A DNA stretch of 20,785 nt from Myxococcota bacterium (GCA_036339465.1 JAYZAY010000094.1:1-20785), one strand, 5' to 3'. Positions 17,467 to 20,785 are shown, counted from the stretch's first letter. Program-made: numbers and translations. The notes: generated by a model from the letters alone, not told the origin.

Positions 17467-17820
17467 ATGATAAATTGGCTCAAGCAACGAAGGACCAAAA
17501 CAGTGCAACCACCACCCATCACAGATTTTTCTGACCTCGAAGGAAACCCCATCCACTTGGTGCTTTATCAGTATGCCAGCTGCCCATTTTGCCGAATGGT
17601 TCAGTCCGCCCTCCGCGACCTAAACTATCAGATATCCCAAAAAGACACCCTGCGCGACAAGGAAGCCCGCATGGAACTCAACCGTGTGGGTGGGAAAAAC
17701 CAAGTTCCCTGCCTCTTCATTAATGGCAAGCCACTTTATGAATCTCAGGATATTGTTCATTTCTTACGAACACAAATTCGGCCTATCCCCAAACCGGAGC
17801 CCCAAGAAAATGGACCATGA
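17467..17820 (+). CDS. Dithiol glutaredoxin-like protein
   Basis: CPFC active site, QVPCLFING cis-Pro motif and LYESQDI. Confidence 0.85.
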   Translation: MINWLKQRRTKTVQPPPITDFSDLEGNPIHLVLYQYASCPFCRMVQSALRDLNYQISQKDTLRDKEARMELNRVGGKNQVPCLFINGKPLYESQDIVHFLRTQIRPIPKPEPQENGP

Positions 17821-18226
17821 AGCAGAACAAATTGCGCAATTTCTCAAGAGTCCAAGCTTCGGCGTGGTCGGTGCATCCCAAGACCGCACCAAATACGGCA
17901 ATAAAGTTCTGCGCTGTTATCTCCAGCACGGGCACTCGGTGGTCGCTATCAATCCCCGAGGGGGTAGAATCGAAAAACAACCGACCTTTGAAAATGTGCG
18001 TGGGTTGCCGCCCGAAATCCAGAGCCTGTCTCTGATTACCCCACCCCACATCAGTGAAGAGGTCATCCAAGAAGCGGCACAGGGCCATATTCGAAATATT
18101 TGGCTACAACCCGGTGCGGAGAGCCCCCGGTGCCTGGAAATTTGTCAGGCCCACGGCATCAATGTGATCGCAGGCGGGGCGTGTTTGCTGGTGGTCTTAG
18201 GCTACCGAGACCACTACGAACCATAA
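17810..18226 (+). CDS. CoA-binding protein (YccU-like Rossmann fold)
   Basis: FGVVGAS...KYGNKV, INP, IWLQPGAE and CLLV motifs. ATG 17810 overlaps the glutaredoxin 3' end; the ORF track start at 17684 is too far upstream. Confidence 0.85.
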   Translation: MDHEAEQIAQFLKSPSFGVVGASQDRTKYGNKVLRCYLQHGHSVVAINPRGGRIEKQPTFENVRGLPPEIQSLSLITPPHISEEVIQEAAQGHIRNIWLQPGAESPRCLEICQAHGINVIAGGACLLVVLGYRDHYEP

Positions 18227-18278
18227 TCCATTGCATTCCACACAGACCATGGGCAAATGGGCTCTAGGGAGGAGATAA

Positions 18279-18764
18279 ATGATGATACCATCGGTTTTGC
18301 TCACATCGGTCCTTTTCACAGCGCCTAAGATTGGCGATACTGCACCCGATTTCACCATCAGTGATACGGCGGGCCTGTCCCACCAGCTCTCTAAGATGGT
18401 GCGTGAAGGTCCTGTAATCCTGGCATTTTTCCCCAAAGCTTTTACCGGCGGCTGAACGAAAGAACTCAAGGCGTACCAGGCTGGTTACGCGCAAATTCAA
18501 AAGTTAAAGGGCCAAGTTCTCGCCATTTCGGGCGACAAATTGGATACCATGAAAAAGTTCAAAGCTTCCCTTACGGCCGATTATCCGTTTATCGCCGATC
18601 CAGAGGGCCAGCTCCTCAAGCTCTTTGACGTCAAATACCCACTCTTTACGGTGGCCAAACGCATCACCTTTGTGATCGGTAAGGACCGGAAGGTTTTGAA
18701 GGTTTTTGAGGGGTCCAACGCCCTAGACCCCAACCACGCCATCAATGCCTGTATGAATTATTAG
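18279..18764 (+). CDS. Selenocysteine-containing peroxiredoxin (AhpC/TSA, BCP/PrxQ-like), 161 aa, TGA 18453-18455 read as Sec59
   Basis: Manual translation from ATG 18279 (GGAGG at 18268-18272): [161 protein letters not shown]. The TGA falls exactly at the peroxidatic Cys of PxxxTxxC, and the catalytic Arg128 is retained. The ORF track entry 18540..18764 is its C-terminal portion in the same frame. Confidence 0.9.
18471..18490 (+). promoter_or_regulatory. Putative bacterial SECIS element
   Basis: Hairpin GCGT-ACCA-[GGC]-TGGT-(T bulge)-ACGC begins 15 nt after the in-frame TGA. The apical loop starts with G, 23 nt after the codon. Confidence 0.7.
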
Positions 18765-19066
18765 GAGAATCCGTATTGTATCGGGAATTTACGAGGCACA
18801 CTAAAAAGAAAATAAGTGCCTTACTACCAGGGGAGAGCTCGGGCCACCAGAGTTCCAATCACGCTTACAAGAAGGACACTTGTTACCAACGCCCCCTAGA
18901 ATACTCCCCAAAAACCCAGATAAGCCAACTTGAGCCACAAACCCAATTTAACCTACCAGCTGGATTTCACTAAACAATCGCATATCGAGTGGTGTCTTTA
19001 GCCTTGAAGATGACAAACTGTTGACATATCAGACTCACCAGCACCCAAGAGAAATTCGGAGAAAAA

Positions 19067-20218
19067 ATGTCTAAAGTTGCATTGGTGATGGGCACACGAC
19101 CGGAAGCTATCAAACTAGCGCCACTGGTCAAAAAACTTGAACAAGCCGAAGATCTCAAAGGAATTGTCTGCAGTACGGGACAACATAAGCAAATGTTGGA
19201 ACAAGTGTTTAAGATATTCGATATCGAACCTGATTTCGACCTGGGCCTAATGCAACAAAACCAGACACTCACAGGTCTAACCTCGCGGGCGCTCACGACC
19301 CTCTCCCAACTCTTCCAAGAAGAAAAACCCGATATTGTAGTCGTTCAGGGCGATACGACAACCGCTTTTACCGGAGCGCTAGCAGCATTCTACCACAAGA
19401 TCCCAGTCGCCCACGTCGAGGCTGGATTACGAACCCATAACCTCCACTCTCCGTGGCCGGAGGAGGGAAACCGAAGCCTGATCGGTCGGCTCGCACAACT
19501 TCATTTTGCCCCGACTCAATGGAGTGCCAACAACCTACGCCAGGAAAACATCGCCGATAAAGACATCATCGTCACCGGTAATACGGTTATCGACGCGCTT
19601 CTTTACGTGCAGGAAAAACTGCAAAGCCAAGAGCTTACAATTGACGGAATTCCTTCGGAGGTTCTAAAGGGGAATGAACAACTAGTCCTTATCACCGGTC
19701 ATCGCCGCGAAAGCTTTGGAGATGGATTTAAAGATATCTGCAACGCCATCGTCAAACTGTCTGAGCGACACCCCGACACTCACTTTGTTTACCCCGTACA
19801 CTTGAATCCGAATGTGCGAAAACCGGTTTTTGATATCCTTGGCAATACAGCAAACCAAAACATCCACCTAATTAATCCACTCGAGTACGAACCTTTTGTT
19901 ATGATGATGCAACGCTCCACTCTTTTGTTGACCGATTCAGGTGGCGTTCAAGAAGAAGGTCCCAGCCTAGGAAAACCAGTACTCGTGATGCGGGAAACCA
20001 CCGAACGTCCCGAAGGAGTCGAAGCTGGAACCGTCAAGCTTGTGGGAACCGACTTCAACAACATCGTCGAAACGACAACCCAACTGTTGGAAGACCGCGA
20101 TGCGTATGAAGCCATGGCGAAAGTTAAAAATCCCTATGGCGATGGTAAGGCATCTGACCGAATTGTCGCTGAGATTCGCAGCTACTTGAACCCCACTTCC
20201 AAGAACACAAAAAACTAA
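19067..20218 (+). CDS. wecB: UDP-N-acetylglucosamine 2-epimerase (non-hydrolysing)
   Basis: Motifs MGTRPEAIKLAP, TGQH, VQGDTTT, HVEAGLR, PWPEE, TGNTVIDAL, TGHRRE, TDSGGVQEE, TERPEG and NPYGDG. Confidence 0.96.
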   Translation: MSKVALVMGTRPEAIKLAPLVKKLEQAEDLKGIVCSTGQHKQMLEQVFKIFDIEPDFDLGLMQQNQTLTGLTSRALTTLSQLFQEEKPDIVVVQGDTTTAFTGALAAFYHKIPVAHVEAGLRTHNLHSPWPEEGNRSLIGRLAQLHFAPTQWSANNLRQENIADKDIIVTGNTVIDALLYVQEKLQSQELTIDGIPSEVLKGNEQLVLITGHRRESFGDGFKDICNAIVKLSERHPDTHFVYPVHLNPNVRKPVFDILGNTANQNIHLINPLEYEPFVMMMQRSTLLLTDSGGVQEEGPSLGKPVLVMRETTERPEGVEAGTVKLVGTDFNNIVETTTQLLEDRDAYEAMAKVKNPYGDGKASDRIVAEIRSYLNPTSKNTKN

Positions 20219-20229
20219 CCCGGATTCTC

Positions 20230-20785
20230 ATGGTCCCCCCTCAAGAAAAGACACACCCCAACAAGACTGAAGACTCCGCACCACCGCAGCTTTATGAGTC
20301 AACCCTCACTCTACTAGAACACCTAAATTCACTCCAAGAGCCACTGACCAATCACGTGGACAATCTCTCCGATTACTTACATCAAATTGAGCGAGATCCT
20401 GCATGGAAAGTTTACGTCGGCTACCGACATTTTAAGCGATTTTTCATTAGAGGAAGTTTAAGGGAAAAGCGCCAATTTATCCGTTGGGCACTCGGAACCC
20501 TATGGAGCAGGCTCTTAAATCGCCCGAATAACAACCCCTTCAGCGAGAGCTTTAAGCTCCCCTACCCAAGCCCATTACTCCAAAGCCTGGCTTCCACATT
20601 GCATACCAATTCGATCCCAAAAAATCCGCAAGCACTTAGGCAGAACCTGGACAAACTAAATCACGGCTTCCAAAATATTCTCCAACACTCAAAACAAAGA
20701 AATACTATTCTTGACTCCGTCGAGACAGCCGAAATATACGAAGAGATTCGCCGCGTCGTTCAAGACAAAAAAGTCATTATTTTTA
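20230..20785 (+). CDS. Partial ORF running off the window end; possibly the N-terminus of a surface-polysaccharide protein (e.g. glycosyltransferase)
   Basis: Open frame from ATG 20230, 11 nt after the wecB stop, for at least 185 codons: MVPPQEKTHP...IERDPAWKVYVGYRHFKRFF...EEIRRVVQDKKVIIF. The function is inferred only from context. Confidence 0.55.
   Translation, partial: MVPPQEKTHPNKTEDSAPPQLYESTLTLLEHLNSLQEPLTNHVDNLSDYLHQIERDPAWKVYVGYRHFKRFFIRGSLREKRQFIRWALGTLWSRLLNRPNNNPFSESFKLPYPSPLLQSLASTLHTNSIPKNPQALRQNLDKLNHGFQNILQHSKQRNTILDSVETAEIYEEIRRVVQDKKVIIF

Follow-up and report, generated by a model that had tools for sequence, protein, structure and literature searches.

A peroxiredoxin frame interrupted by a single TGA

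The subject of this analysis is one gene in a 20,785-nucleotide (nt) stretch of DNA from a Myxococcota bacterium (GCA_036339465.1, JAYZAY010000094.1:1-20785), hereafter the window, in which a reading frame on the + strand at 18279-18764 encodes a peroxiredoxin (Prx) and carries an in-frame TGA at its catalytic position. From the homologs of this frame, the RNA hairpin that follows the TGA and the selenocysteine (Sec) machinery of the genome, we consider it very probable that the frame encodes a genuine selenoprotein of the PrxQ/BCP class with Sec at the peroxidatic position (PxxxTxxU). The frame starts at ATG 18279, with a Shine-Dalgarno-like sequence (GGGAGGAG, 18267-18274, + strand) read directly 4 nt ahead of it, and this start is fixed because an in-frame TAA immediately 5' of the ATG (18276-18278) bars upstream extension. 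It then runs through 161 codons to the stop TAG (18762-18764) and includes only one in-frame TGA, at codon 59 (18453-18455, + strand), which confirms the original prediction of a complete AhpC/TSA frame with a ribosome-binding site and a single interruption. The TGA follows directly after FFPKAFTGG and closes the active-site motif P52-K-A-F-T56-G-G-U59 (PxxxTxxU, 18432-18455, + strand), and the spacing P52-x3-T56-x2-U59 puts it at the peroxidatic position of the PxxxTxxC motif, where it aligns with the TGC or TGT codon of the homologs that carry cysteine (Cys), in line with the catalytic position first proposed for it. The active-site tetrad of peroxiredoxins consists of the Pro and Thr of PxxxTxxC, the peroxidatic Cys or Sec and a conserved Arg. 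The last of these we take to be Arg128 (codon at 18660-18662, + strand), from the role known for this residue in the family; P52, T56, C/U59 and R128 are all invariant across an alignment of 15 sequences.

Under translation table 11 the frame is split into two open reading frames (ORFs), at 18279-18455 (58 residues) and 18540-18764 (74 residues, with a TTG start). Database relatives were limited to the full-length class, which held 117 proteins (E <= 1e-20) out of 244 candidates, named peroxiredoxin, redoxin domain-containing protein or peroxiredoxin Q/BCP. The catalytic site is Cys in 96 of these, W in one and a recorded Sec in none, while the other 20 fall outside the strict pattern; ten of them were inspected, and the site was reached in nine, all Cys. 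The single W is most likely a TGA (Sec) that was called as Trp under another code. Both the split frame and the lack of recorded Sec in these 117 relatives agree with the earlier remark that gene callers divide or miss Sec forms.

The product of reading through the TGA has three attributes of a peroxiredoxin, namely the profile match, the tetrad (P52, T56, U59, R128) and the thioredoxin-type Prx fold. It matches Pfam AhpC-TSA (PF00578) with 100.5 bits (cut-off 26, E 8.1e-29) over residues 18-140, a match that spans the TGA and covers profile positions 1-122 of 124, and it matches Pfam Redoxin with 60.7 bits. When a profile of 15 homologs was compared with the PDB, the top four structures were BCP/PrxQ proteins (5epf, 2cx3, 3drn and 2ywn, E 5.6e-34 to 8.5e-29), with E-values of 5.6e-34 for BcpB of M. 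tuberculosis (5epf), 6.1e-30 for BCP of A. pernix (2cx3) and 2.4e-29 for Bcp1 of Sulfolobus (3drn); the E-values for other Prx classes were about 2e-20 (AhpE) and about 1e-15 (AhpC). An AlphaFold2 (AF2) model made from a 15-row alignment reached a predicted local distance difference test (pLDDT) of 91.3 and a predicted template-modelling (TM) score of 0.86, with low pLDDT at residues 1-10, and its top Foldseek hits were all peroxiredoxins (E down to 2.1e-16, TM 0.73-0.85), including BcpB 5epf (0.83), Bcp1 (0.81) and AhpE (0.83-0.85). Two narrower NCBIfam models were not reached: the nearest, the Bcp equivalog NF006960, gave 58.7 bits against a cut-off of 140, and the PrxU model NF040737 gave 36.3 bits against a cut-off of 270, on which account PrxU was rejected as an identity. 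Since both scores lie below their cut-offs, the protein is, as judged by profile and predicted fold, a PrxQ/BCP-class peroxiredoxin that is neither a Bcp equivalog nor a PrxU. The complete coding sequence (18279-18764) is accordingly described, from the AhpC-TSA match, the BcpB profile match and the AF2/Foldseek results, as that of a predicted 161-residue Sec-containing peroxiredoxin of PrxQ/BCP type.

Homologs carry TGA or cysteine at the same codon

We searched 41 related genomes, including that of the window, with the read-through protein and obtained matches in 38, from which the 15 closest homologs (best match per genome, E <= 7.6e-34) were aligned. Their catalytic codons, all in one alignment column, are TGA in eight and TGC in seven, and each of five remoter homologs (E 7e-21 to 3e-16) encodes Cys at this position. 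In a wider scan of named genome records with the pattern FFPKAFT[PGS]G at least 598 stretches were found, and the catalytic codon in the best 80 of these is TGA in 48, TGC in 29 and TGT in three. Judged by record titles, 74 of the best 80 loci are myxobacterial (Myxococcus, Corallococcus, Archangium, Cystobacter, Hyalangium, Anaeromyxobacteraceae, Haliangium and other Myxococcota); the TGA locus L055, for instance, belongs to a cultured strain of Archangium gephyra. That the same codon is TGA in eight of the 15 closest homologs and in 48 of the best 80 further loci means that the TGA is not a matter of chance.

The protein is also conserved to a like degree on either side of the TGA. Counted upstream and then downstream of the catalytic codon, identities with the window's protein are 29/57 and 60/101 in the homolog of genome G001 (51% and 59%), and 33/57 and 51/102 in that of G021 (58% and 50%), and therefore the downstream part is under the same constraint as the upstream part. 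The claim that both halves of the frame are intact is thereby borne out, and the proposed homolog alignment has returned the expected alternation of Cys and TGA at codon 59 and conserved sequence before and after it, rather than relatives that all carry Cys beside a copy under relaxed selection.

A SECIS-type hairpin accompanies the TGA forms

Folding and homolog comparison identified a hairpin of the bacterial selenocysteine insertion sequence (bSECIS) type, GCGUACCA-GGC-UGG(U)UACGC, at 18471-18490 on the + strand. It starts 15 nt after the TGA and consists of 8 base pairs (bp) with one bulged U and the apical loop GGC (18479-18481), giving the structure ((((((((...))).))))) with a minimum free energy (MFE) of -8.8 kcal/mol when 18466-18495 is folded. 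The constraints applied to it were those in the legend of Fig. 2 of PMC13188914, by which the bSECIS model has a loop of 3-9 nt, an upper stem of 4-16 bp, a G among the first two loop nucleotides, a distance of 16-37 nt separating the apical loop from the UGA and an MFE <= -7.5 kcal/mol. The window's hairpin lies within each of these limits, with its 3-nt loop, its 8-bp stem, a loop that starts GG, a UGA-to-loop spacing of 23 nt (18456-18478) and the MFE given above. The consensus hairpin of the clade has a 4-nt loop, GGAC, on an 8-bp stem, and G stands at columns 27-28 in at least 90% of 53 TGA forms.

In the first set of homologs, RNAfold placed a hairpin at the same offset in all eight TGA forms and in none of the seven Cys forms. 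In an ungapped register of the same sequences (columns 19-25 with 32-38), 83.9% of cells are paired in the TGA forms versus 57.1% in the Cys forms, and the greatest differences fall at the three pairs that are least dictated by the protein sequence: pair 21-36 is formed in 7/8 TGA forms (six G-C, one G-U) versus 1/7 Cys forms, pair 24-33 in 6/8 versus 2/7, and pair 25-32 in 7/8 versus 0/7.

Larger alignments were then compared, comprising 53 TGA sequences (48 from the wider scan plus L021, L022, L025, L034 and L035; 51 distinct rows, three TGA loci of the first set being dropped because they duplicate the records of L076, L103 and L105) and 37 Cys sequences (32 from the wider scan plus L029-L033; 36 distinct rows, L023 and L026 being dropped as duplicates of L061 and L095). 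The 8-bp stem GCGUACCG-GGAC-CGGUACGC (columns 19-26 with 31-38) is paired in 95.1% of 408 cells over the 51 TGA rows, versus 63.9% for the same register in the 36 Cys rows, while control registers slid along the TGA forms gave 16-37%. Compensatory changes occur at pair 19-38 (G-C to U-A in three TGA-form sequences) and at pair 23-34 (A-U to U-A in two), and pair 21-36 is evenly divided between 25 G-C and 25 G-U. None of 500 shuffles matched the observed pairing or covariation score of the TGA-form stem, a test that is inflated by the kinship of the sequences. The bacterial SECIS search that the original prediction had called for has thus returned a hairpin specific to the TGA forms.

Selenocysteine machinery and independent reads

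The source genome, a draft of 102 contigs that is 92.8% complete, holds the complete set of Sec genes that had been postulated for the organism (SelA, SelB, SelC and SelD), as found by profile searches and by the anticodon of the tRNA-Sec. The tRNA-Sec (70.6 bits, cut-off 47; ARAGORN anticodon TCA) lies at C85:45754-45847 on the - strand, SelA (439.9 bits) adjoins SelB (301.5 bits, full length, profile positions 2-580 of 581) on contig C27, and SelD (300.5 bits) is encoded at C85:34722-35633 on the + strand (locus L018), all three proteins scoring above their cut-offs. A refutation through lack of Sec machinery therefore fails. SelD itself has an in-frame TGA (context SSAG-U-AAK) with a GGU-loop hairpin 20 nt beyond it, and a second AhpC-like gene at C14:26490-26855 on the - strand (locus L042) reads PKADTSG-U-IAEGC, with a strong hairpin that has a GUU loop 17 nt after the UGA. 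The Cys at +5 in this second Sec-BCP occupies the usual BCP resolving position. Both hairpins have 3-nt loops that begin with G, like the GGC loop of the window at 23 nt. The genome thus appears to use selenium actively, with at least three predicted selenoproteins, namely the window's peroxiredoxin, the second BCP and SelD. As a side observation, the SelD and tRNA-Sec genes stand about 10 kb apart on contig C85.

Among the related genomes, SelA was found in seven of the eight with a TGA form, the exception being G021, which is 81% complete. In the genomes with a Cys form it was found in three of seven, and a search of the remaining four (completeness 84-97%) did not find it.

Assembled sequences from independent sequencing runs carry the same codon. 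A contig from run X1 covers 18253-18800 and keeps the TGA with one difference (18338), a contig from run X3 covers 18380-18571 and keeps it with no differences, and a contig from run X6 covers 18410-18655 and keeps it with two differences (18458 and 18461); none of the three differences changes an amino acid. The three runs belong to three studies, of which X1 may be the source sample, and X6 is an RNA library, in which a contig is no proof of transcription. A fourth run, X2, was left out, as it gave only pieces of 33-34 nt with 90-95% likeness, whose flanks did not match and which probably stem from other organisms. Most of the runs in which the stretch occurs are marine or seawater metagenomes of several studies, three runs containing at least half of its words, and for this reason the source organism appears to be a marine lineage.

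A lone C-terminal cysteine and a hydrophobic N-terminus

The only Cys of the protein, Cys158 (codon at 18750-18752, + strand), is conserved in homologs and lies 99 residues after Sec59, in the last helix of the AF2 model (151-159). Of the 15 closest homologs, 14 have a last-helix Cys, and of the best 80 loci of the wider scan 79 have a C-terminal Cys, at +99 in 75 of them; in both sets the stretch from the active site to this residue is otherwise free of Cys. Because it is a lone, nearly invariant Cys in the last helix, Cys158 is a candidate resolving residue, and on these sequence data it would likely form a selenenylsulfide with Sec59. PMC4749874 places the resolving Cys of PrxQ proteins in helix alpha2 (+5) in about 60% and in alpha3 in about 6%, describes an alpha5 resolving Cys for AhpE members and counts alpha5 among the intramolecular positions recognised in peroxiredoxins. 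Unlike those PrxQ members, the window's protein has no Cys in alpha2 or alpha3 and has its only Cys in the last helix, a position that resembles the alpha5 one of the AhpE and Prx5 classes; a last-helix resolving Cys would be a modest variant of the PrxQ arrangement.

The window's protein ends three residues past this Cys. Many homologs from Myxococcaceae and Archangiaceae (L043-L099) have a tail of 10-30 residues after the conserved Cys, of low complexity and rich in P, A, K, E and D.

At the other end of the protein, an uncharged hydrophobic segment of 16 residues (18279-18326, + strand) precedes the motif of the first strand, KIGDxAPDF, and a similar segment of about 16 residues is found in nearly all homologs. 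The homolog of G023 has an Arg-rich start followed by a lipobox-like ...AFAAC, and classic signal peptides occur in L122 and in several distant database relatives. The segment is a possible leader or membrane anchor, by which the putative selenoprotein might be exported.

Weighing the alternatives

Several results speak against the reading of the TGA as Sec, or against parts of it. Folded alone, the window's hairpin is no more stable than shuffled sequences (z -1.21, 25 of 200 as good), and a 68-nt stretch gave z +0.34; because single-sequence folding is not significant, the SECIS case rests on the comparison of homologs. In that comparison the small set of eight TGA sequences shows no compensatory change, the kinship of the sequences inflates the shuffle statistics of the stem, and the Cys forms are still 57-64% paired, because the encoded A-Y...Y-A residues constrain much of the stem. 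Compared with the clade consensus, the hairpin of the window is a variant that has one U bulged out and A at column 26, a form found elsewhere only in G001 and L108; in the bulge register, G001 differs from the window by an A-U to U-A swap. An Rfam scan of 18200-18800 matched no SECIS family, and its only hit, to the gltS RNA (23.2 bits against a gathering score of 47.5, E 0.71), was taken as chance. To these may be added the shortfall against the Bcp equivalog model noted above and the result of a tblastn search with five neighbouring genes of the window, which found no match at 14 homolog loci (flanks of about 1.5 kb).

The alternative that survives best leaves the selenoprotein in place and concerns its task: the main job might be thiol-disulfide exchange or a redox relay to a protein partner, possibly in the envelope, in place of bulk peroxide removal. 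The redoxin fold is common to oxidoreductases of the ResA/TlpA type (ResA 41 bits; PDB ResA E about 1e-14), and the hydrophobic N-terminal leader together with the signal peptides of distant relatives would suit such a role. We consider it unlikely, though, since the peroxiredoxin tetrad P-T-(C/U)-R is invariant, no CxxC or UxxC motif is present, and the best sequence and fold matches are all to peroxiredoxins of the BCP/PrxQ and AhpE classes.

A nonsense pseudogene, in which a Cys-peroxiredoxin changed its TGC or TGT to TGA and makes a 58-residue fragment or nothing, would account for the split under table 11, for the many relatives that carry Cys and for the weakness of the hairpin when folded alone. 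It does not account for the recurrence of TGA at the same codon in 8/15 and in 48 of the best 80 homologs from several families, for conservation that is equal after and before the TGA, for strain variants that are only synonymous (two of them just after the TGA), or for a SECIS-type hairpin specific to TGA forms in a genome with full Sec machinery, and we hold it to be very improbable. Equally improbable is that the TGA is read as a residue other than Sec, through reassignment (to Trp or Gly) or near-cognate read-through (as Trp or Cys). The database relative with W at the site speaks for this, while showing only how some gene caller read it; on the other hand, three conserved genes of the window, out of 17 ORFs checked, end in TGA (PilZ, alpha/beta-hydrolase and glutaredoxin), so that the codon's ordinary use as a stop, asserted from the outset, holds. 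Further, a dedicated tRNA-Sec, SelA, SelB and SelD are present, the site is a redox-active Cys position where only Cys or Sec is functional, and a hairpin at SECIS spacing accompanies the TGA. A sequencing or assembly error that hides a true TGC or TGT, a prior possibility in any 102-contig draft, is effectively refuted and of negligible probability, given that contigs of runs from three studies (one maybe the source sample) read TGA, as do 55 homologous loci of other assemblies.

The earlier interpretation that the organism makes a TxxU peroxidase is therefore the one we retain, as machinery, Cys/TGA alternation, hairpin and read agreement all favour it at the level of sequence. According to the selenoprotein reading, the hairpin at 18471-18490, which lies inside the coding sequence, would recruit SelB carrying Sec-tRNA(Sec), and Sec would be inserted at UGA codon 59 in place of termination, as its anatomy and spacing, the machinery and the homolog comparison suggest. 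From the chemistry of the family, U59 would act as a selenolate kept in position by P52, T56 and R128, reducing H2O2 or an organic hydroperoxide and becoming a selenenic acid, which Cys158 in the last helix would probably resolve to a selenenylsulfide, and a reductant of thioredoxin or glutaredoxin type would then regenerate the enzyme.

Exchange of selenocysteine and cysteine within the clade

A quick, unrooted maximum-likelihood tree was calculated from 90 rows (53 Sec, 37 Cys) and 142 columns after masking of the catalytic column. At least 13 switches between Sec and Cys are required, five of them forced by well-supported branches, versus an average of 28.8 switches for shuffled labels, none of 500 shuffles being as low as the observed tree. 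In the 55 nt after the catalytic TGC or TGT, the Cys forms L058, L059 and L063 keep 8/8 hairpin pairs and L043 and L046 keep 7/8, and in the tree these five are nested within Sec clades or adjoin them, while deeper Cys clades keep two to five of the eight pairs. This pattern suggests that Sec was replaced by Cys, leaving decaying "fossil" SECIS hairpins behind; since the tree is unrooted and quick, the direction is taken from the hairpins and not from the tree. In Table 1 of PMC1794560 the direction from Sec to Cys is not recorded for Prx.

As a separate observation, L108, the only one of the best 80 loci to lack the C-terminal Cys, has the variant hairpin of the window, GGC loop and bulged U included, and the tree puts it together with G001 and the window.

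A more far-reaching proposal is that these proteins form a distinct PrxQ sub-type, mainly of Myxococcota, that combines an alpha5-type selenenylsulfide through the lone +99 Cys, an envelope leader and repeated swaps of Sec for Cys. We put this forward tentatively and regard it as rather doubtful. If it were true, the hydrophobic leader would put the enzyme at or beyond the membrane, making it a cell-envelope selenoperoxidase, and the lone Cys 99 residues downstream would resolve the Sec or Cys, unlike the usual alpha2/alpha3 arrangement of PrxQ.

Genomic neighbourhood

Two genes upstream of the peroxiredoxin, on the same (+) strand, lies a glutaredoxin gene (17467-17820), and between the two stands a gene with a CoA_binding_2 domain, also on the + strand, the upstream pair spanning 17467-18226. 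Taken at its longest, from GTG 17684, the ORF of the CoA-binding gene would share 137 nt with the glutaredoxin gene, and its Pfam domain starts near 17858; given this overlap, the true start is probably later than 17684. The upstream glutaredoxin gene is a suggestive hint to the reductant. A conserved operon with the glutaredoxin and CoA-binding genes was rejected, as neither was found within about 1.5 kb of the 14 homologs, and with neighbours that are not conserved, a partnership with glutaredoxin is unsupported by gene context.

Downstream, an ORF of 108 residues at 18970-19296 (- strand) has no Pfam match, overlaps a UDP-GlcNAc 2-epimerase gene (19067-20218, + strand) and is probably not a gene. 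A further ORF at 20230-20784 (+ strand), likewise without a Pfam match, runs off the end of the window.

Relation to known peroxiredoxins and meaning of the finding

The enzyme type is already known, and the window's protein belongs to the established family of Sec-peroxiredoxins (TxxU, PrxQ/BCP class). The existence of such proteins in bacteria, on which the original prediction drew, is borne out by PMC1794560, PMC1088965 and PMC13188914, from which Sec-peroxiredoxin with TxxU emerges as a selenoprotein family long known from bacteria and abundant in them. In PMC1794560, 12 Sec-Prx are listed in Table 1, and Table 3 assigns three to Anaeromyxobacter dehalogenans, a myxobacterium. The 2026 review PMC13188914 places Prx (PF00578, TxxU) ahead of the heading "Predicted with high confidence" and names the motif PxxxTxxU. 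With that family (TxxU, COG1225, PF00578), so far as those same sources describe it, the window's protein has in common the fold family, PxxxTxxU with a peroxidatic Sec, a bSECIS immediately following the UGA and homologs that have Cys in place of that Sec. There is no categorical difference, the clade of the window being marked by its lone +99 Cys and its uncharged hydrophobic N-terminus, of which the available text of the three sources gave us no description.

Comparison with other peroxiredoxins leads to the same placement. The BCP/PrxQ structures (BcpB 5epf, Bcp1 3drn and A. pernix PrxQ 2cx3/4gqf) have the same active-site tetrad and are the best profile (5.6e-34 to 2.4e-29) and fold matches (TM 0.73-0.83), but use Cys where the window's protein would have Sec. 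PrxU (NF040737) is likewise a Sec-containing peroxidase of AhpC/TSA fold, but it is longer (233 profile positions) and belongs to another Prx class. In fold, AhpE resembles the window's protein as closely as BCP does; however, AhpE and Prx5 are Cys enzymes, and the profile similarity of AhpE is weaker than that of BCP/PrxQ. The alpha5 resolving Cys is used by Prx5 as well as by AhpE.

As this kind of enzyme had been described before, the finding is chiefly a correction to annotation, and the practical gain is the recovery of a gene that is split or lost under table 11. General knowledge of selenoproteins is left unchanged by the window's gene, and the additions are modest ones: a near-invariant lone +99 Cys, an uncharged hydrophobic leader and "fossil" SECIS hairpins in some Cys forms. 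The clade, with its 53 Sec and 37 Cys forms and a compact conserved bSECIS, offers a natural data set for the interchange of Sec and Cys and for the decay of SECIS elements, and the cultured myxobacteria within it that have the TGA form are suited to the study of selenium incorporation and of the role of the C-terminal Cys.

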